A DNA stretch of 64,000 nt from NCBI GenBank assembly GCA_934167305.1, contig CAKPKQ010000004.1, positions 3,255 through 67,254 of the forward strand. Direction: 5' to 3'. Numbering within the stretch: position 1 is the stretch's first letter; each line of letters begins with the position of its first letter. Source of the stretch: an uncultured Clostridia bacterium (GTDB lineage: Bacteria > Bacillota > Clostridia > TANB77 > CAG-508). This document shows positions 34,827 to 44,035 of this stretch, in pieces. The notes beneath the pieces are model-generated. The model was not told the DNA's origin. It saw nothing but the letters and a program-made list of their open reading frames with translations, and did not search any database. A program made the position numbers and the translations under genes.

Positions 34827-35561
34827 ATGGAAGAAAGATTACAAAAATTCCTAGCTAATCAAGGGGTTTGCTCAAGAAGAAAAGCAGAGCAATACATATT
34901 AGAAGGAAAAGTAAAAGTTAATGGACAAGTTGTAACAGAACTGGGAACAAAAATAAACACAGATGTGGATAAGATTGAGTTTAATAATAAACTAATATCG
35001 AATGAAACAGAAAAAATTTATATATTATTAAATAAGCCAATTGGTTATGTAACAACTGTAAAAGATCAATTTGACAGACCAACTGTAATGGAATTTTTAA
35101 AAGAAAATGGTAAACCAATAAAAACAAAAGTAGTTCCAGTTGGAAGGCTAGATATGTATACATCAGGAGCTCTAATATTAAGCAATGATGGAGATTTTAT
35201 ATATCAAATTACACATCCAAAACATGAAATAAATAAAACATATCAAGTAACAGTTAAAGGAAAAATAACTGATTCTGAAATAGAAAATCTAAGAAGCGGA
35301 GTAGACATTGGAGATTATATAACAAAACCTGCTCAAGTAAGGATAATGAAAATAGATGAAGAAAAAAACATTTCAAGAATAGAAATTACAATACATGAAG
35401 GAAAAAATAGGCAAGTAAGAAGAATGTGCGAATCTATAGGAAAAAAAGTATTGGCATTACATAGAAGTAAAATAGGAAATATTGATGTAAAAGATTTAAA
35501 ATTAGGAAGATTTAGATATTTAACTGATAAAGAGGTAAAACAACTTTTGACTAATTTTTAA
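34827..35561 (+). CDS. RsuA/RluB-family pseudouridine synthase (S4 domain)
   Basis: GRLDMYTSGALILSNDG catalytic motif and EGKNRQVRRM. Confidence 0.88.
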   Translation: MEERLQKFLANQGVCSRRKAEQYILEGKVKVNGQVVTELGTKINTDVDKIEFNNKLISNETEKIYILLNKPIGYVTTVKDQFDRPTVMEFLKENGKPIKTKVVPVGRLDMYTSGALILSNDGDFIYQITHPKHEINKTYQVTVKGKITDSEIENLRSGVDIGDYITKPAQVRIMKIDEEKNISRIEITIHEGKNRQVRRMCESIGKKVLALHRSKIGNIDVKDLKLGRFRYLTDKEVKQLLTNF

Positions 35562-35667
35562 ATATGTGTTAATATAATACTGATTATTATTACTAATTGT
35601 AATGGTAATTATATGGTTAATATAACTAATTTTTTAGTCTTTAATAAAGATTAGAAGGGAGAAGAAA

Positions 35668-36609
35668 ATGGTAGAAGATAATGAAATAAAGGCAACTATA
35701 TCGCCTTTTGCAATTAGAGAGGGAGAAGTAAAAGTATTTGATGGTAAAGATGGCTATATTTCAATGAATCAAATTATTCATAGAATAAATATAGGGCATA
35801 TTACTGACTTGCACTTTTCTATTTTAGAACTAGTAAATGAATTTGAATTTATTACCTCAAGACAATTACTTCAAATGCTAGAATGGAAAGGAATAGAAGT
35901 AGGCTCTCAAGATAAATTAAATAATAAATTAGAGCAATTGGTAAAAACAAAAATATTAACAAGATATTATTTCAATTCAGAAGATGGAAAAGGAATTTAT
36001 AGAATTTATTGTTTAGAAAAAATGGGAAAGTATTTGCTTAACTCACGTGGAGTTGAATGTAAATGGCAACCTACAGATAATACAAAACCAGTTGCAATGA
36101 TAAAGAAAAGATTGGCTGGAAATCAAACATTAATTGCCTATTTAAGAAAGGTAAAAGCTTTTGATTCATATGTTCCAAAGCCAAGTTTTACAGCTAAACA
36201 AGCTGGAAAAGTATTTAAAGCAAGTGGAGGAAGTGTAAAATTAACCAAAAATAATAAATCAATTGAATTTGTATTTGAAGTTGTACGTAGAGAACCAGAT
36301 TGGGAGAAAAAGTTGGTTGACAAAATGAGATTATACAAAGACTTTTACGAAAACTTCCAAACAGGTGACTCTGGCTATACAACTATTCCACAATTGATAA
36401 TAATATGTGAAGATGACAAACATATGGCAGAAAGCTTTAAAGCTATAGTAATGAATAAAGTTGAAATATCAAATATAAAACTATATTTTACAACAGATTT
36501 AAGACAAAACGAAGAAACGTTAGAAAGAACATTAGTACATTTCGGAATAGACCCAGAAACTAAAAAATATAGAATGGAAAACATTGAAGTAAAATTATTA
36601 GGAATATAA
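35668..36609 (+). CDS. Replication-relaxation family protein (wHTH + PD-(D/E)xK-like fold), plasmid/ICE-type
   Basis: N-terminal winged-helix-like region (LHFSILELVNEFEFITSRQLLQML) and overall length and architecture of the Replic_Relax family. Assignment by eye. Confidence 0.45.
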   Translation: MVEDNEIKATISPFAIREGEVKVFDGKDGYISMNQIIHRINIGHITDLHFSILELVNEFEFITSRQLLQMLEWKGIEVGSQDKLNNKLEQLVKTKILTRYYFNSEDGKGIYRIYCLEKMGKYLLNSRGVECKWQPTDNTKPVAMIKKRLAGNQTLIAYLRKVKAFDSYVPKPSFTAKQAGKVFKASGGSVKLTKNNKSIEFVFEVVRREPDWEKKLVDKMRLYKDFYENFQTGDSGYTTIPQLIIICEDDKHMAESFKAIVMNKVEISNIKLYFTTDLRQNEETLERTLVHFGIDPETKKYRMENIEVKLLGI

Positions 36610-36610
36610 T

Positions 36611-36667
36611 AAAAAACTTTTTTGGATATTTATATTAAATGAAATCCAAAAAAGTTTTTATTTTTAT
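36611..36667. terminator. Bidirectional terminator between convergent genes
   Basis: AAAAAACTTTTTTGGAT / ATCCAAAAAAGTTTTT 16-17-bp stem. Confidence 0.8.
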
Positions 36668-36699
36668 ATATTAATATAAGCTATTCAACATATATAAAA

Positions 36700-37467
36700 T
36701 TAGAAATTCCATCTTTTTTCTATACTTTCTAGATTATCCCAAACAGCATTAAAATTATCTATATTATGTGTATTATGTTTTTCCTCGATACTAATTCTAT
36801 TATATAATAGTATAAACATTAGACAGAATACTTTTCTTATATTTTCGTTATGATTATATAGAAATGTTATAAGTTCATTAAAGTCTATATTTTTAGTTAT
36901 ATTATAATCAGAAAATATAAAATATATAAAGTCATATATGGCATCACCTATAATAGTTCTAGGATCTATTATACCCACAATTTTATTGTCTAAGTAAACA
37001 AGATTAAAACTTCCTAAATCTCCATGAATTAACTTTGGAATTATACAAAAAGTTTGCATTAATTCTAATTTATTTAATACTTTATGAGTTTTAGATAAAT
37101 ACTTGTCAGACATGTATTTTTTTTTGCTTTGAAATTCTGAGTATAAGAAGTCGTTCCAGCTTTTTTTTGGAGTTAATATATCTCCATATCTTCCATTCTC
37201 CATGATAATATAATTATTAATCATATCATATACATCTAATATAAGCATTTGACAATTATTTTCATAATCTAATCTGTTACCATATATATAATTGTAAATT
37301 ACAAAATTATTTTCTGTGTTTTCTTTTAGAATTTTCTCTACTGGCAATATATTAGAATAACTCTTTATAAAAAACTGTTCAGAAATAAGGGTTGTTCGCG
37401 GAGCAACTTTTACAATGTATTTTCCATTTACTAAAATTATTTTATTTTTTATTTTTATCACTCCCAT
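36700..37467 (-). CDS. Aminoglycoside-phosphotransferase-fold (APH/choline-kinase-like) kinase
   Basis: HGDLGSFN catalytic loop and IIDPRTIIGDAIYD metal-binding segment. Overlaps the upstream gene by 26 nt and is extremely A+T-rich. Confidence 0.7.
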   Translation of the reverse strand: MGVIKIKNKIILVNGKYIVKVAPRTTLISEQFFIKSYSNILPVEKILKENTENNFVIYNYIYGNRLDYENNCQMLILDVYDMINNYIIMENGRYGDILTPKKSWNDFLYSEFQSKKKYMSDKYLSKTHKVLNKLELMQTFCIIPKLIHGDLGSFNLVYLDNKIVGIIDPRTIIGDAIYDFIYFIFSDYNITKNIDFNELITFLYNHNENIRKVFCLMFILLYNRISIEEKHNTHNIDNFNAVWDNLESIEKRWNF

Positions 37468-38485
37468 TTTTCAAGGTTAAGTTTATGAAATTAAATAATT
37501 CATCAATATTTTTTTCATTTTGATAAATTTTATATATTGATATTTGTTGAGTATCAAGTAAAGGAATACTTGGGTTTTCAAATATGCTAGAAAGATATCT
37601 TATAGTGTCATACGAACCGCATCTTCTATTTCTTTGAAGAACTTCAGCTTTTTGGTTTTCAGTCAATTCTATTATGCGAATATGTTCAAGTTCAGGAAAA
37701 TAAAGAGGAATTATAATAAAACTTACTTTTACCTTATTTATTAATTTTATATTATAGATATCTTGTAACTCATTAACCTTTATATTAAACTTTTTTTGTG
37801 AATATAAATGAAAATTAAAATCTGATACATATAAGAATTTATCTGCGAATTCTGTTTTTTCCATTATAGCTTGCTTAATATTAGGATTTAACACTGATGA
37901 TAAAGTACCTAAACGTATACCGACACGTGAAGGAGAACCTACTGCAATAAGATTATTGTTTTCTTTTTTTAAAGCTAAATGTGAATTACTAACGAAATTA
38001 AATCCAGATTGAAGAAGATAATTTAGTATTGTTGTTTTTCCAGAATTTCTTTCTCCTATTATAACTATGCCACTGGAATTTTTTTCTACACAAGCTGCAT
38101 GAAAATATGAATAATTTGACCTTTCTAAAAATAAACCAAATATACTTATTAAGTTCTCACCAATAAATTGAATAAGATTATCTGTAATATTATTATATAG
38201 AATAAAAATCTCATCTTTTTTGCAAGATATAATAATACCGTCCCTATCTTTTAAATATATAAAGTTATTAACAGATGATGATTTATGAGAACTGATTAAA
38301 CTCTCGTATTTGTATTTATTTATGTAGATATATAAATTAAAATTAACTTTTAGAGAATTTGTATCAAAAGTATAATAATTACCATATTCCATTTTTAATT
38401 TTTTTAATAACTCGTCAACACAGATAATCTTAATAGATATGCCCTCATTTTTTACATAATTGATTTTCACTTTTTCTTCTTTCAT
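37442..38485 (-). CDS. HPr-kinase-related P-loop protein (HprK C-terminal-like)
   Basis: HAACVEKNSSGIVIIGERNSGKTTILNYLLQSG matches the HprK-type H-x-(gvll)-G-x-SG-x-GK-[ST]T core. An AAGAGGAA RBS lies inside the end of the rSAM reading frame. Confidence 0.6.
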   Translation of the reverse strand: MKEEKVKINYVKNEGISIKIICVDELLKKLKMEYGNYYTFDTNSLKVNFNLYIYINKYKYESLISSHKSSSVNNFIYLKDRDGIIISCKKDEIFILYNNITDNLIQFIGENLISIFGLFLERSNYSYFHAACVEKNSSGIVIIGERNSGKTTILNYLLQSGFNFVSNSHLALKKENNNLIAVGSPSRVGIRLGTLSSVLNPNIKQAIMEKTEFADKFLYVSDFNFHLYSQKKFNIKVNELQDIYNIKLINKVKVSFIIIPLYFPELEHIRIIELTENQKAEVLQRNRRCGSYDTIRYLSSIFENPSIPLLDTQQISIYKIYQNEKNIDELFNFINLTLKNGSDKNKK

Positions 38486-38642
38486 ATTCCTCTTTCATCC
38501 CGTTTTTTGTTAGATAATCATTTATATACTTTTTTATTTTTAACTTTGCAGAACACCAACTATCTTCTGCAAAATTATAATCATTATGCAATATATAAGC
38601 ATTGGCTGGACAGCCGTCCCATGCATTCACTATAAATTTCAC
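38445..38642 (-). pseudogene. Out-of-frame C-terminal continuation of the radical SAM/SPASM gene
   Basis: This frame reads ...WDGCPANAYILHNDYNFAEDSWC.... Joined to CGTCEIYSEC it completes CX2CX5CX3C-gap-C. Confidence 0.7.
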
Positions 38643-39597
38643 ATGTTCCGCATTTTCCAGATTTTATTTGCTCATTTCTATAATCAACAATCTTTTTGAT
38701 TTTTTCTAATAAAATAGCAATATCTATGTCATTGATATTTCCATAAAAAAATTCTTTATTATTATATGTTCTATTACATGAATATAAATTCCCATCTGAA
38801 TCTAGTGAAATAAAGTTTAAGGCACATTTACCAGAAGTTGCACAAGATTTATTACTATATGAACTATCTAGACATTTTACAAATTCATCGTAAATTTCTT
38901 TTATTTGAGTGAGACGTACATTGTCATCTGAAGTATCCTCTATCCATATATTAAATAATTTTTTAAAAAATTTAAAGTAGCTTTCATTAGTCATAAAATT
39001 GATATCCATAGAATTATTGCACTTAAATGCAGGACGGATATTACAATTTAATTTATTGTTACGTAAAAATTCATATAATTCGTCCTCTTTATTAAGTATT
39101 TGGTTAGTTAAAGTCATTATTATTCCAAAATTAATGTTTTCTTTCTTTAATAAATCAATTTTTGATAAAACATCTGTAAATGAATTTTTATTATTTTTAT
39201 ATACTCTAAATTTATTTGTTATTTCATCATAACCGTCAAGACTTATTCCTACATGGACATTATATTTTTTTAGGATAGCTGTGATATTTTTATTAAGTAA
39301 TGTTGCATTGGTTTGAATACTAAATCTTGCGTTAGGGTATAATTTTTTTATTTGCCCTAACAGTGCATCATAATTTTGATAGTTAATAATTAATGGTTCT
39401 CCACCATGAAATATTATTTCACTTGAAGCATTAGTATTAGGCCAAAGCTTTTTTATGTATTTAATTATGTTTGGAATTTTTGATGCAAATTCTTCATTTT
39501 CTTTTATTAAATTAGTGTGGTTATTCTTATCATAACAATATTTACAATTTAAATTGCAAGAATTAGTTGATCTAAATATAATTGTAAAATTTCTCAT
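38584..39597 (-). CDS. Radical SAM enzyme with SPASM domain (frame as annotated stops inside the SPASM motif)
   Basis: CNLNCKYC (CX3CX2C) near the N-terminus, GGEPL, and SPASM part 1 CALNFISLDSDGNLYSC (CX10GX4C). The ATG at 39597 follows a GAAAGGA RBS. Confidence 0.85.
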   Translation of the reverse strand: MRNFTIIFRSTNSCNLNCKYCYDKNNHTNLIKENEEFASKIPNIIKYIKKLWPNTNASSEIIFHGGEPLIINYQNYDALLGQIKKLYPNARFSIQTNATLLNKNITAILKKYNVHVGISLDGYDEITNKFRVYKNNKNSFTDVLSKIDLLKKENINFGIIMTLTNQILNKEDELYEFLRNNKLNCNIRPAFKCNNSMDINFMTNESYFKFFKKLFNIWIEDTSDDNVRLTQIKEIYDEFVKCLDSSYSNKSCATSGKCALNFISLDSDGNLYSCNRTYNNKEFFYGNINDIDIAILLEKIKKIVDYRNEQIKSGKCGTCEIYSECMGRLSSQCLYIA

Positions 39598-39663
39598 AAC
39601 TTTGTATCCTTTCACATATAAAATAGAGCCCACTATATAATATAATGGGCATGCTTTGTGGTG

Positions 39664-39840
39664 TTAATAGCTATCGTCATATCTTGAAGTGTCATCATAA
39701 TGAGAGTCAAAATATCTATCATCAGCTCGATCACTATGTCTATCATGATAGTAAGAATCATTGTAATTATCTCTATGAACTAACTCACTATTAAAAGTAA
39801 AATTGCCTTGAGAGAAAAATTCTTCTAATCTATTACTCAT
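39664..39840 (-). CDS. 58-aa candidate RiPP precursor peptide (not in the ORF track)
   Basis: The ATG at 39840 lies 7 nt after an AAAGGAG RBS. Translation: MSNRLEEFFSQGNFTFNSELVHRDNYNDSYYHDRHSDRADDRYFDSHYDDTSRYDDSY*. It lies 25 nt after the upstream gene and 66 nt before the rSAM start. Confidence 0.65.
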   Translation of the reverse strand: MSNRLEEFFSQGNFTFNSELVHRDNYNDSYYHDRHSDRADDRYFDSHYDDTSRYDDSY

Positions 39841-39865
39841 AATTACTCCTTTCTATTACTAAAAT

Positions 39866-42241
39866 TTATTTATTTTTTTTCTTTAGATTAACAACAATTG
39901 CATTTTCATTATCAAATAAGTATTTAGAATCAGATGTGTCTGTTTGAATAGGGTTAAATTCACGGTCTATATCATAATTATCATTATTTGCTGTAACTGC
40001 TGCAAAATCACCTTTTTTTGTTTTTAAAGCTTTTTTAGCAGCTGATTGTGTATCAGTAATTCCACTAACAAATTTGGTAAAATTGTAGTTTTTAGTTTTT
40101 TGTACTTCTTTATATTTTGATTCCATAAAATCAACTTTACCTTTATCAACAGCACTTTTTCCACCTAAGTCTTTTACTTTGTAAATAACTTGTTTTCCTT
40201 TTAAAGACATAATCTTGCCTTTAGCAAAGTTAGGTTGCCACTTAAATTTAATTCCACTCTTTTTTGCATCATATTCCACTTTATCACTATTATAATTGTC
40301 AGTCCAAGACCATTCTCTTTTATCTTGCATTGCTGTTTCCCACCATTCAACATCTTCAGGTGTCGCATTACCGAAAATTATTTTATTAACTGTGTTTGAA
40401 AGAATTAAGTTCTTGTAATAATCACCTCTAGCATCAGCAGATAAATCTCCTTTTAATTGTGTTAAGTTTTGAGAATCTAATACTGTTGCAACATTATATT
40501 TTCTGTATAAAGTATATATTGGTTCAGTAGCTTTACAAATATATGCAGGAAAATCATCTATATATAAGAAGTGAGGAATACGTGTACTGTCATTTCCTGG
40601 TCTAGCAAGTATTGATTGTTGCATTAACAATAAGAAGAATAAACCAAATGCTTTGTGAGCAGTTTCTCCTAAATCACCTCTACGTGTACATACTAAAGTT
40701 ACTTGACCTTCTGATAATATTTTATCATATTCTAGGTTGTTAGAACGATTACATAATACAGATTTTACACCAGGGTAACGTAGTAAGTTATCAATTTCTG
40801 CAGAAGCAGTTGTTGTTGAACGTTGAGCATTTAATAAATTAGGGCTATCTGGGTAAAAGTTATTTTCAAAATATTTAATTAAAATACGATATTTTGAAGC
40901 TAACTCAGGAATTTCTTTCATTTTATCAACTAAATCAACAATTAAACTGAAATCTGTAAGCATATCTAACATATCTTCTAAGTTAGGTAGTAAGCCATCA
41001 TGTTCTAATGGATACATTTCTTTTAACAATATTGCTATATTTTCAATCATTTGAACTGCTTCATTTTCTCTAAAAGCAAGTTCTGTATCTGGTCTACTAT
41101 GAATAAATAATCCTTTTAATACTGAAGATACAGCTAAACCTGTTTTTATAGGATCTTTATAAACAAATGGGTTTAAACCAGGTGAATCTGCACGATTTGG
41201 ATCAACTATATTTACTGGAATATGGTAATTGTTTGCAACTTTTGCAATCTTTTCAACTGATTCATGCTCTGCTGAAATATAAGTAATACCCATATTACGG
41301 TAAATAATTTTGTCTCCAGAACTTGAAATTATCATTTTTTTCATATAGCTTTTATAAGTATCAATTTTTTCCTCTTTAGGAATTAACATATCTAAAGAAA
41401 AATGTTCATTTATATAATCATTATCATATGGGCAACTTAAAGATGCAAGGCCAGTTCTTAATGCTGTATATCCCATTTCTTTTGAAACTTCTTTAAAAAA
41501 TGATTTTCTTTCAATATCTCTTGCAAGCATTGGCTCATAAATCATTGTGGTTTTACCTGAGCCAGAAACACCAACAACTAATAGTGATTCATAACGTTTC
41601 TTTTCTGGAATACATACATCTTGACCACTTTCACTATCCATACAAACTTTAACTTCGCAAGTATATGCTCCATGAGCTTCTTTATCAGATGAAAGCTTAA
41701 TTCCACCATAATCGAAAATAGAATCACGAATATCTTTAACATCATTAATACCAAAAATCAACCATTTTATTACTTTATAGAAGGTAACTAAAGGAATATA
41801 TACCCCTATAGCTGTAAAAGCAGGTTTAAATAAGTAAAAGAACTCTCTTGCTAATTGAGGGTAATTTGGTAATGATAAAAGGTTTATCCATACAATTTGG
41901 TTTAGCCATTGAACAACAGCTGACACAATTAAAATGTAAAATGAAACTATAAATGTATGAAAAAATCTTAATTTATTAACATCTGCTTTTGCAAACTTTG
42001 ATCCTCCTGAAAAGAAAAATGCAAATGTCATACAAGCAAATGCAAAGAAATATTTTATTGGACCCCAATAACTAAAACCTACACCTGTAAAAATTATAAA
42101 CAATAATTCAACAATTCTATCTACTAATATATAAGCAGAAATTAAAGTTAAAATATAGGTTACAAATGTATTTCTGTCAGTTTTTAAAACTTTTAAAAAT
42201 TTATCAAATAGTTTCAAAAAATTCACCACTTTCATTTTCAT
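39866..42241 (-). CDS. Type IV secretion coupling-protein-like (TraD/TraG/VirD4-type) membrane ATPase
   Basis: About 5 N-terminal TMs, Walker A GVSGSGKTT, Walker-B-like HFLYIDDF and the downstream T4CP-like segment VATVLDSQNLTQL. Confidence 0.6.
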   Translation of the reverse strand: MKMKVVNFLKLFDKFLKVLKTDRNTFVTYILTLISAYILVDRIVELLFIIFTGVGFSYWGPIKYFFAFACMTFAFFFSGGSKFAKADVNKLRFFHTFIVSFYILIVSAVVQWLNQIVWINLLSLPNYPQLAREFFYLFKPAFTAIGVYIPLVTFYKVIKWLIFGINDVKDIRDSIFDYGGIKLSSDKEAHGAYTCEVKVCMDSESGQDVCIPEKKRYESLLVVGVSGSGKTTMIYEPMLARDIERKSFFKEVSKEMGYTALRTGLASLSCPYDNDYINEHFSLDMLIPKEEKIDTYKSYMKKMIISSSGDKIIYRNMGITYISAEHESVEKIAKVANNYHIPVNIVDPNRADSPGLNPFVYKDPIKTGLAVSSVLKGLFIHSRPDTELAFRENEAVQMIENIAILLKEMYPLEHDGLLPNLEDMLDMLTDFSLIVDLVDKMKEIPELASKYRILIKYFENNFYPDSPNLLNAQRSTTTASAEIDNLLRYPGVKSVLCNRSNNLEYDKILSEGQVTLVCTRRGDLGETAHKAFGLFFLLLMQQSILARPGNDSTRIPHFLYIDDFPAYICKATEPIYTLYRKYNVATVLDSQNLTQLKGDLSADARGDYYKNLILSNTVNKIIFGNATPEDVEWWETAMQDKREWSWTDNYNSDKVEYDAKKSGIKFKWQPNFAKGKIMSLKGKQVIYKVKDLGGKSAVDKGKVDFMESKYKEVQKTKNYNFTKFVSGITDTQSAAKKALKTKKGDFAAVTANNDNYDIDREFNPIQTDTSDSKYLFDNENAIVVNLKKKNK

Positions 42242-42400
42242 ATCTATACTACTATATTATCTTATAAAATCGCGAAAAATACAAGGCTTTTTGCGAAAAA
42301 TGTAGAAAAAATAGCTCTTAAATCCTCTTATATAAAAGTGTAATAATCATACTTTTTAAAGTATATGTATATAAAAAGAAAAATATAGAGGAAAATTTAA

Positions 42401-44035
42401 ATGAAAGCAAAAAAAGAAAGTTTTATGAAAGGTGTTTTGGTTTTGATGATAGCACAGATTTTAATCAAAGCACTAGGACTCATTTATAAATTATATTTAA
42501 CAAATAGAGAAGGATTTGGAGATAAAGGAAATGCTATTTATAGTAGTGGATTTCAAATATATGCTTTATTTTTAACAATTTCATCAGTTGGAATTCCAGG
42601 AGCATTAGCTAAATTAGTTTCCGAAAAAGTTGCAATAGGAGACACAAAAGGTGCACATAGAATATTTAAAATTGCTTTTGTTACTTTTGGATTGATAGGC
42701 TTTTGCAGTAGTGCAATATTGTTTTTAGGGGCAAAATATATTTCTAATACCTTATTGCAAATACCAGAAGCAGAGCTAACATTAGTAGCTTTGTCACCAT
42801 CCATATTTTTTGTATCAATATCTTGTGTAATAAAAGGGTATTTTATGGGAAGGGAAAACCTAAAAGTTACTGCAAATTCTCACACTTTGGAACAATTTTT
42901 TAAAACAGTATTGTCTGTTATAATAGTAGAATTTATAGCGATGACGACAGGAGTAGATACATCTGTTATGGCAGCGGGAGCAAACTTAGCCACTACATTA
43001 TCTACAATTTTATGTTTTATATATTTATATAAATATTATTCTAAAATGAGAAAAGAAATTGCATGGGAACTTAAAAGGGGGAAGGAATATAAAAAAACAA
43101 GGATAATTAAAACTATAAAACAAATATTGTTTGTTTCAATACCAATGTCAATGACAGCAATATTGGGAACAATAAATAAAAATATTGATTCAATGACAGT
43201 GGTAAGAGGGCTAAAAAGATTTTTATCAGAAGAACAGGCCAAAATACAATATGGAATTTTAAGTGGAAAAGTAGATACATTAGTTACACTGCCAATGTCA
43301 CTAAATATGGCCTTTGCAACTGCTTTGGTTCCATCTATATCTTCTTCAAAAGCAATTGGAGATATGGAAACCGCAAGAAAAAGAATTTCATTTTCAATGC
43401 TTATAACTATTTTAATAGGAATGCCATGTATGATAATGATGATATTGTTTGCAAAGCAGATTTTAGAGCTATTATTTCCAAATGCAACATCAGGAGCTTT
43501 TATTTATCAAATAAGTTGTTTAAGTATAATTTTTATTGTTTTGGAACAAACTATAAGTGGTGCTTTACATGGATTGGGAAAGATGGTAACTCCAGCAATT
43601 GCACTTGGAATAGGGGTTATAGTTAAATTTATTTTAAATTTATATTTAATACCAATAAATCCAAGTGAATTTATAATAGGTGGAACTGCAGGAGCAGCTT
43701 TTTCAACAGTGGTATGTCATGCAATTGCTTTATTCATTGAATTTAAAATTTTAAACAAAAATATAAATCTTAAATTAAATAAAACAAAATTTGTATTAAA
43801 ACCTTTTATTGCAAGTTTGGTTATGGCAGTTTCCTCATATGTGATGTACATATTAATTATAAATAAAATTCAAAATAAGTTGGCAACATTATTTTCAATT
43901 GGTTTAGGAATGCTTATATATGTAATATTTGTCATATTATTAAAAATTTTTTCAAAAGAAGAAATTTTTATGATTCCATTTGGAAAAAAAGTTTATTATT
44001 TTTTAGAGAACTTGAAACTGTACAGAAACGGCTGA
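42401..44035 (+). CDS. MOP-superfamily flippase (MurJ/SpoVB-type polysaccharide/lipid II flippase)
   Basis: 14-TM protein of 544 aa. The N-terminus KGVLVLMIAQILIKALGLIYKLYL is typical of SpoVB/MurJ-like proteins. Confidence 0.75.
   Translation: MKAKKESFMKGVLVLMIAQILIKALGLIYKLYLTNREGFGDKGNAIYSSGFQIYALFLTISSVGIPGALAKLVSEKVAIGDTKGAHRIFKIAFVTFGLIGFCSSAILFLGAKYISNTLLQIPEAELTLVALSPSIFFVSISCVIKGYFMGRENLKVTANSHTLEQFFKTVLSVIIVEFIAMTTGVDTSVMAAGANLATTLSTILCFIYLYKYYSKMRKEIAWELKRGKEYKKTRIIKTIKQILFVSIPMSMTAILGTINKNIDSMTVVRGLKRFLSEEQAKIQYGILSGKVDTLVTLPMSLNMAFATALVPSISSSKAIGDMETARKRISFSMLITILIGMPCMIMMILFAKQILELLFPNATSGAFIYQISCLSIIFIVLEQTISGALHGLGKMVTPAIALGIGVIVKFILNLYLIPINPSEFIIGGTAGAAFSTVVCHAIALFIEFKILNKNINLKLNKTKFVLKPFIASLVMAVSSYVMYILIINKIQNKLATLFSIGLGMLIYVIFVILLKIFSKEEIFMIPFGKKVYYFLENLKLYRNG

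Follow-up and report, generated by a model that had tools for sequence, protein, structure and literature searches.

In a 64,000-nucleotide (nt) stretch of DNA from an uncultured Clostridia bacterium, hereafter the window, four genes on the minus strand make up a small island that encodes a peptide of 58 amino acids (aa), a radical SAM/SPASM enzyme (rSAM) and two proteins with kinase folds, one HprK-like and one APH-like. We propose that in intact relatives this island is a pathway for a peptide made on the ribosome and modified after translation (RiPP) of the triceptide kind, and that the copy in the window is most likely inactive, a reading to which we give a probability of about 0.6. A Tyr-x-Asp (Y-x-D) peptide adjoins every closer relative of the rSAM, the rSAM of the window carries a frameshift found in every full-length near-identical copy, and the peptide of the window has lost a Tyr that all relatives keep. 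The parts of the island are:

39840..39664, minus strand: precursor peptide gene, 58 aa; open reading frame (ORF) with a ribosome-binding site (RBS) AGGAG at 39850-39846, 5 nt ahead of the ATG
39628..39650, minus strand: stem-loop with a T-run behind it, in the gap that separates the peptide gene from the rSAM gene; from a scan for terminator-like sites
38445..39597, minus strand: radical SAM/SPASM maturase gene, a pseudogene in the window; PF04055 match, frameshift at 38616
38485..37442, minus strand: PEPCK/HprK-fold P-loop kinase, 347 aa; from the ORF, predicted structure and Foldseek
37467..36700, minus strand: APH/eukaryotic-like-kinase-fold phosphotransferase, 255 aa; from the ORF, a PF01636 match below cut-off and predicted structure
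36612..36659, no strand: perfect 16-bp inverted repeat AAAAACTTTTTTGGAT ... ATCCAAAAAAGTTTTT, read from the sequence
36613..39865, minus strand: the whole accessory island of 3.25 kb, that is, all that lies between the stop codons of two convergent flanking genes

The rSAM gene begins with an ATG at 39597, 66 nt past the peptide stop. Its frame 0 runs from 39597 to 38584 and a +1-frame continuation extends it to 38445; the start of the HprK-like gene overlaps this restored end by 41 nt, and the APH-like and HprK-like genes overlap by 26 nt. A sequence-only reading of this DNA had already described four co-directional minus-strand genes with these spacings, and all of its coordinates agree with ours. 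It had also reported no protease, ABC exporter or stand-alone PqqD or RiPP recognition element (RRE) gene, and none is found within the island.

A conserved Tyr-x-Asp peptide and its radical SAM partner

The peptide starts with the leader MSNRLEEFFSQGNFTFNSELV and continues into the core HRDNYNDSYYHDRHSDRADDRYFDSHYDDTSRYDDSY, which holds five Tyr-x-Asp motifs. The sequence-only reading had flagged it as a hidden gene, with the proposal to look for similar short ORFs beside homologues of the rSAM. Such ORFs do recur: in the genomic contexts and in a scan of representative genomes, each rSAM relative of at least 40% identity adjoins an ORF of 52-74 aa in which the leader motif R-(L/V/I)-x-E-(F/L)-(L/I) precedes 5-9 Tyr-x-Asp motifs, and no Y-x-D ORF adjoins the rSAMs of at most 32% identity among 80 genome loci. 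A HMMER search with the peptide over 1.84 billion representative proteins (50% identity clusters) returned 18 clusters, with E values down to 4e-29. Across these 18 representative clusters the leaders differ and the C-terminal half, YDDRYFDSHYDDTSRYDDSY, is almost unchanged; the conservation of the peptide exceeds that of the cassette enzymes. Within the motif, the third position is almost invariably Asp and the middle one is variable (D, F, H, S, N). In the 37 core codons, the ratios of synonymous to non-synonymous changes are 11:5, 10:5 and 13:7. The C-terminal residue varies among cassettes (Y, F, R, D, N, or a follower peptide), so that the C-terminal Tyr on which the suggestion of Tyr decarboxylation was based is not conserved.

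The intergenic region between the peptide and rSAM genes of the window folds with -14.3 kcal/mol, the stem spanning 39650-39628 ahead of the T-run. Most variant cassettes have similar hairpins of different sequence, the strong ones between -11.6 and -20.8 kcal/mol. This element looks like an attenuator or partial terminator that would favour the precursor over the enzyme transcript; an attenuator hairpin between the peptide and maturase genes is a usual operon arrangement. An Rfam scan of 35000-43000 at E ≤ 1 gave no RNA element. Judged from its pairing with the rSAM, its excess of synonymous changes and the structurally conserved hairpin behind it, the 58-aa ORF is a genuine precursor gene, as had been supposed.

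The rSAM matches PF04055 with 68.9 bits (cut-off 29.5), in keeping with the earlier view of an rSAM/SPASM maturase that stands beside a genuine short precursor in a RiPP-type cassette. Its CX3CX2C motif lies at residues 14-21, with C14, C18 and C21 invariant in 37 family members; a position so close to the N-terminus leaves no room for an RRE there. Intact relatives have eight further invariant Cys (C252, C258, C274, C316, C319, C325, C329 and C348), which align with the two auxiliary-cluster sites of the structure of an anaerobic sulfatase maturase (anSME, 4K37). Searches with the frame-restored rSAM uncovered about 80 proteins of 360-390 aa, 35-67% identical, which form a family of their own that has no name; in the scan of GTDB representative genomes, the relatives among the matches listed reach at most 45% identity.

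To place the enzyme we used NCBIfam, including its June 2026 release. No model reached its cut-off with the rSAM, nor with the intact homologues from two other loci (L002 and L017). The best match was DynA, the dynobactin maturase (182-213 bits, cut-off 450), followed by the anSME model TIGR03942 (151 bits, cut-off 349); anSME is also the best relative in the PDB. All curated cyclophane-synthase models (XyeB, GrrM/OscB, FxsB, YhhB, AmcB) stayed below their cut-offs, with 134 bits for YhhB (445), 117 for AmcB (425), 111 for GrrM (310), 84 for FxsB (370) and 67 for XyeB (450), as did DarE (114 bits, cut-off 650). PapB and DarW were also among the better profile matches, again below cut-off. Cyclophane, daropeptide and anSME-like enzymes are known to be near in sequence and hard to separate (PMC10288494; PMC12912966).

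What the island does share with triceptides, which are defined by an aromatic-X2-X3 motif and a loss of 2 Da per ring (PMC12912966), is a CX3CX2C radical SAM core and an adjacent precursor with aromatic-X2-X3 motifs. One triceptide rSAM, YxdB (WP_226048651.1), forms a bond between C3 of Tyr and Cβ of Asp (Sugiyama et al. 2022, reviewed in PMC11002830). With Asp at the third motif position, a variable middle position and this precedent, triceptide-type chemistry is favoured, and the likeliest modification would be one already described, namely three-residue cyclophanes linked Tyr(C3)-Asp(Cβ). The claim that no described RiPP class fits the Tyr/Asp/His core was hence too strong, a Tyr-x-Asp cross-linking enzyme having been published (PMC11002830). 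As in triceptide clusters, a short rSAM/SPASM enzyme sits here beside a small precursor gene with a core of repeated aromatic-X2-X3 motifs, Tyr-x-Asp is the residue pair that YxdB joins, and a dedicated RRE is missing, as in some triceptide clusters. The differences are that the island family has up to nine motifs in a strongly acidic core, that its accessories are two kinases whereas described triceptide tailoring consists of hydroxylases and an ADP-ribosyltransferase, that the copy in the window is frameshifted, and that no curated model of a three-residue cyclophane-forming rSAM enzyme (3-CyFE) is reached at its cut-off.

Other families were compared as well. DynA and DarE are likewise rSAM/SPASM enzymes that link aromatic side chains with Cβ positions of a small ribosomal peptide, DynA being the best profile, yet their precursors have a single short core whose Trp/His-containing motifs are aromatic at both ends, their producers are Gram-negative and their clusters contain transporter genes. 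Neither model is reached, and the third motif position is here Asp, not aromatic. PqqE also forms a C-C bond from a Tyr ring to an acidic side chain in a small peptide, but it needs PqqD and then PqqB, PqqC and PqqF, none of which is present, and PqqA has a single Glu-x3-Tyr site instead of repeated Tyr-x-Asp. No cassette variant has PqqD or MftB or the processing genes of the PQQ and mycofactocin pathways. As for anSME, neither the island nor its flanks contain a sulfatase, and it is a peptide that is co-conserved instead.

In the mechanism that we propose for intact islands, an N-terminal leader with the R-(L/V/I)-x-E-(F/L)-(L/I) motif would precede a very acidic core with 6-9 Tyr-x-Asp motifs, and the hairpin after the precursor gene would set the ratio of precursor to enzyme. 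The rSAM/SPASM enzyme would take a hydrogen from the Asp Cβ and couple this carbon to C3 of the Tyr two residues upstream, so that each motif would become one small cyclophane with a loss of 2 Da.

Two predicted kinases

The HprK-like protein has the Walker A motif G144-x-R-x-x-G-K-T-T152, in which G144, R146, G149, K150, T151 and T152 are invariant, as are several His, Arg and Asn residues. We found 16 homologues, none with a precomputed Pfam domain. Its scores fall short of TIGR04355 (35.9 bits, cut-off 200), TIGR04352 (21.1, cut-off 200) and PF07475 (17.6, cut-off 33.3), and by sequence it belongs neither to HprK nor to the HprK-related A/B families. Its AlphaFold2 model (pLDDT 87) matches ATP-dependent PEPCK in Foldseek over the whole length (E 8e-8, TM about 0.5) and HprK/P over the P-loop domain (E 1e-6). 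The APH-like protein scores 20.7 bits against PF01636 (cut-off 23.2), and most of its homologues have a precomputed PF01636 domain. Its catalytic set is intact and invariant in 22 sequences (K20, E30, H148, G149, D150, N155 and D168), with the β3 Lys, αC Glu, HGD...N loop and metal-binding Asp of a bilobal kinase fold. The AlphaFold2 model (pLDDT 93) matches APH(4)-Ia in Foldseek with TM 0.67-0.71, and also fructosamine-3-kinase, LicA and capreomycin phosphotransferase. The predicted structures thus confirm both folds as they had been called from the sequence, but the Pfam matches to PF07475 and PF01636 lie below threshold. From residues and models, it is plausible that both kinases are active.

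Kinases of these folds have precedents among RiPPs. Lasso peptide clusters contain HPr-kinase-like genes and yield phosphorylated lasso peptides (PMC4289311; PMC5067487), and the kintamdin and thioamitide pathways have APH-like kinases paired with lyases (PMC9415263). The island shares with paeninodin-type lasso peptides an HprK-fold kinase in a Firmicute RiPP cluster, which there phosphorylates the precursor peptide. It differs in having no lasso cyclase or protease genes and in the kinase itself, which is here a two-domain, PEPCK-like protein of 347 aa with 16 relatives and sub-threshold similarity to HprK. With thioamitides, kintamdin and class V lanthipeptides it shares an APH/ePK-fold phosphotransferase in a RiPP cluster, theirs acting on core Ser/Thr; their kinases dehydrate together with a HopA1-type phospho-lyase, whereas the island has no lyase and its core has no Cys for thioethers. 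The literature that we searched contained no report of kinases in an rSAM-cyclophane pathway, and in that literature the combination of a dual-kinase accessory set with a long, hyper-acidic, near-invariant core appears to be undescribed.

In the proposed pathway, the two kinases would O-phosphorylate Ser, Thr or Tyr of the peptide. A candidate site is the Ser ahead of YY in ...N-D-S-Y-Y-H-D, which nearly all variants retain. The kinases may instead phosphorylate the product as a means of self-protection.

An accessory island in a fixed chromosomal slot

The island lies between a 791-aa membrane P-loop ATPase with weak TraG/VirD4 similarity (39866-42241, minus strand) and a 313-aa Replic_Relax-like protein (RepRel; 35668-36609, plus strand). 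These two genes normally converge across a spacer of 7-185 nt, as seen in 80 loci (L100-L179), and among 80 metagenome loci holding an ATPase relative, 79 lack the cassette within a distance of 10 kb. In a locus of the same species (L100), flanks that are 98.6-99.4% identical to the window at the nt level enclose 287 nt of unrelated sequence in place of 36613-39865. L001 represents a sister species, given that its housekeeping proteins are 78-90% identical; it is 99.4% identical to the window over 36596-40000 (19 mismatches in 3.4 kb) and 77-88% identical in both flanks, with one breakpoint at the RepRel stop codon and the other within the final ~135 nt of the ATPase gene. These comparisons show an accessory island that varies among strains and has been exchanged between species.

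Across relatives, identity is 80-93% for RepRel and 49-92% for the TraG-like ATPase, against 41-61% for the rSAM, 24-58% for the HprK-like and 32-53% for the APH-like protein, and 10 of 11 clostridial cassette arrangements adjoin the flanking ATPase. We considered the ATPase and RepRel as exporter and regulator of the system and rejected this as an obligatory role, 79 of the 80 ATPase loci being free of the cassette. The flanking genes stand outside the RiPP system and frame a hot spot of insertion or recombination. PHROGs, PADLOC and PDB sequence searches gave weak hints only for these two proteins. The island sits in this hot spot, between the two conserved, convergent chromosomal genes, and passes from species to species. 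No known mobile element was recognised: megablast of 35600-42300 against plasmid and phage collections had no match, and tblastn of the closest intact rSAM against plasmids returned relatives of at most 32% identity.

The convergent ATPase-RepRel pair belongs to human-gut Clostridia, with no other conjugation genes nearby, and RepRel exceeds even the adjacent pseudouridine synthase genes in conservation. The slot itself has various contents. In L100 (4549-4835) it is occupied by an ORF of 39 aa, MALCEVCWGSGVVDEGTPEERECPFCCGTGFQEDDDDET, which is preceded by a good RBS and combines a pair of CxxCxGxG motifs, as in the DnaJ zinc finger, with an acidic tail; this ORF recurs in two more distant loci (L108 and L177). 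In L115 it spans 326 nt with a 48-aa Asp/Tyr/Gly-rich ORF, MYYGPIPNIDDCDYDEELGMYYDSDSGNYYTCDEDGKIYEGGSDYPIN, and in L117, L119, L120 and L123-L130 it spans 1356-1372 nt with a conserved but unassigned protein of about 450 aa. The inverted repeat of 36612..36659 sits between the convergent APH-like and Replic_Relax-like genes; it is likely a bidirectional terminator and marks the left island end. The consensus terminator scan missed it because its stem is A+T-rich.

Separate acquisition had been put forward on the strength of base composition. The two 60-nt spots cited for low G+C were correct (13.3% and 16.7%), though cherry-picked, but rpoB and the upstream ATPase have 32.8% and 28.5% rather than 35-38%. 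The cassette genes have 22.5-24.1% G+C, against a mean of 28.6% for the genes of the window (standard deviation 3.0, minimum 20.3%) and 28.3% for the window as a whole. At gene level this signal is too weak as a sign of acquisition and we replaced it with the comparative evidence: the module was indeed separately acquired, as borne out by its presence and absence and by its flank-discordant identity, not by G+C.

Other clostridial cassettes combine the peptide, the rSAM, the HprK-like and the APH-like kinase, often with a further Cys-rich protein of 305-319 aa that the window cassette lacks. This protein has a mid-chain C-x3-C-x2-C motif (NNGCSFNCGxC), matches nothing in Pfam or NCBIfam, and may supply the pathway with a second Fe-S enzyme. 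We entertained a U32-type peptidase or a hydroxylase, for which Pfam and NCBIfam give no support. Its genes are located as follows:

L016, 9103-10020: Cys-rich protein
L015, 9136-10071: Cys-rich protein
L009, 8136-9062: Cys-rich protein
L095, 6470-7393: Cys-rich protein
L012, 5247-6200: Cys-rich protein

Cassettes from metagenome-assembled genomes labelled 'Bacilli' or Erysipelotrichaceae contain the Cys-rich protein, a protein-kinase-like gene, the rSAM, a serine protease of the ClpP/SDH type and a peptide with a follower. This sister type (L017 7196-10141, L019, L099 and L012) runs from the kinase-like gene through the rSAM and the protease to a Y-x-D peptide of 69-74 aa whose C-terminal follower is basic; in L012 a single ORF spans protease and peptide. 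In L098 (6913-11534) a peptide-rSAM pair without kinases lies about 4 kb from the ATPase-RepRel pair, preceded by a 279-aa Replic_Relax-like paralogue and with an unknown 592-aa protein downstream, which hints that a winged-helix protein of the RepRel type can be recruited to the system. Decay is common among the other cassettes too: the HprK-like gene is split in L096 (10872-11478) and L097 (9121-10123) and has lost its P-loop in L016 (10005-10901), L015 (10033-12388) has an APH remnant on the opposite strand together with a transposase, and L005 (9127-10683) has an IS element.

A probably decaying copy and the competing readings

In the window, a 1-nt insertion (C, minus strand) at 38616 moves the last 56 codons of the rSAM to the frame of 38615..38445. 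The window reads GGA[C]GGC TGT where L002 has GGT GGT TGC and L005 has GGA GGA TGT, and deletion of the inserted C restores C-M-G-G-C-P-A-N-A-Y, which fits the family consensus C-x-G-G-C-P-A-N-A-Y. C329 and C348 are thereby out of frame, so the SPASM ligand set, complete in L002, L005, L095 and other relatives, is incomplete here. In the alignment to anSME 4K37, the break precedes the Cys that matches C330, and the truncated protein is without the equivalents of C330 and C348, which we take to be the fourth ligands of auxiliary clusters I and II. The frame had previously been treated as something to be restored. The break is no assembly glitch: full-length members of the 99% identity cluster all have 337 aa, on ~140 or more contigs, and because every full-length near-identical copy has the frameshift, we consider it real and common to the sister species. 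A search of 5.8 billion protein clusters found none that is intact and more than 67% identical.

The peptide gene shows a similar picture. L002, L005 and L095 have seven Y-x-D motifs, the common frameshifted allele (L001, P0123) has six and the window five. Ala39 of the window replaces a Tyr that is invariant in all relatives, through two adjacent base substitutions, and the gene contains 4 of the 19 differences between the window and L001 within its 177 nt, at 39725-39751, a far denser set than in the enzyme genes. Because the frameshift of the rSAM is paired with the loss of an invariant core Tyr, the cassette of the window is most likely inactive and decaying.

Several observations weigh against the reading of a triceptide pathway with an inactive copy in the window. 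Two species share the frameshifted cassette at 99.4% identity, and wherever it occurs its peptide gene and both kinase genes are intact; this is somewhat unexpected for a dead locus and could reflect a residual function. The island has no phospho-lyase, protease or exporter; the action of the kinases on the peptide is a proposal; and the HprK-like gene may be dispensable, since it is split or has lost its P-loop in several variants. With no curated cyclophane-synthase model at its cut-off and the anSME model scoring nearly like the DynA top match, sequence alone leaves the chemistry unfixed. Any kinship to YxdB, the sole enzyme with the proposed activity, is putative.

The first of these points feeds an alternative in which the window cassette still works, by a +1 shift at GGA-CGG-C, by separate production of the C-terminal 56 residues, or as a kinase-only system with a phosphorylated, un-cross-linked peptide. 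The frameshifted form is the only allele seen, on ~140 or more contigs, it has spread between two species at 99.4% identity without damage to the HprK-like, APH-like or peptide ORF in any full-length copy, and CGG is the rarest codon in the window (0.13 per 1000 codons). Yet rare codons arise by chance in out-of-frame reading, and recent transfer of a neutral dead cassette accounts equally well for the near-identity. Programmed +1 frameshifting finds no slippery site at the break, where the Gly-tRNA of GGA would have to sit on GAC after the shift; nor is a stimulatory element evident, and the +1 ORF has no RBS. We rejected it as an explanation and keep it as a low-probability rival. The window has lost an invariant Tyr and the sister allele another motif, which resembles relaxed constraint. 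A working cassette is therefore improbable in our view, although it is a possibility that the frameshifted allele persists because the kinases and the peptide function without cross-linking.

Hardly better placed is an rSAM RiPP with another chemistry, which we rate as unlikely, if by a hair less so than a working cassette: the cross-links could be ethers or C-N bonds, as darobactin and dynobactin have them, Asp could be converted to aminomalonate, or a PqqE-like step could lead to a Tyr-derived redox cofactor or a peptide that binds metals. DynA is the best NCBIfam match, at a score far under its cut-off, and the difficulty of telling cyclophane, daropeptide and anSME-like enzymes apart (PMC10288494; PMC12912966) speaks for such a chemistry. 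A core so rich in Asp, His and Tyr would bind metals. Aminomalonate is reportedly formed by a promiscuous enzyme from this group. Daropeptide motifs, by contrast, are aromatic at both ends, while the third position is here Asp and the middle one varies; pqqB-F-like or mftB-F-like genes are lacking, and the C-terminal Tyr is not conserved. That the locus is no RiPP at all, with the rSAM an anSME-like protein maturase or a metabolic enzyme, the kinases acting on small molecules and the short ORF incidental, we regard as very improbable. The second-best profile and the best PDB relative are indeed anSME, and APH-fold enzymes usually act on small molecules, but the peptide and the rSAM are co-conserved in every arrangement, even with another gene order or other accessories, the peptide is more conserved than the enzymes, no sulfatase lies nearby and the anSME score of 151 bits is far below the cut-off of 349. 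The triceptide reading, with a copy in the window that has most likely ceased to function, is the one that we prefer.

Beyond it lies a more specific and tentative proposal, on which we would not rely: that intact islands make a hitherto unseen kind of triceptide, hyper-acidic and with up to seven or more Tyr-Asp rings, phosphorylated by the two kinases of different folds and with a conserved target or role in human-gut Clostridia. If true, this would be the first kinase tailoring in an rSAM-cyclophane pathway, and the product might serve, for example, in metal binding or signalling.

For annotation, the rSAM of the window should be labelled a pseudogene and no product should be assumed from this cassette. 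The locus exemplifies a small biosynthetic island that some strains of a species carry and others lack, that species exchange at a fixed slot, and that is decaying. If the intact relatives work as proposed, phosphorylation would be added to the chemistry of rSAM cyclophane peptides, and the island would represent a gut-specific pathway that is compact, has hardly been annotated and makes an unusually conserved product. Not one of its four proteins attains the cut-off of a curated family, which makes the island a concrete target for heterologous expression.

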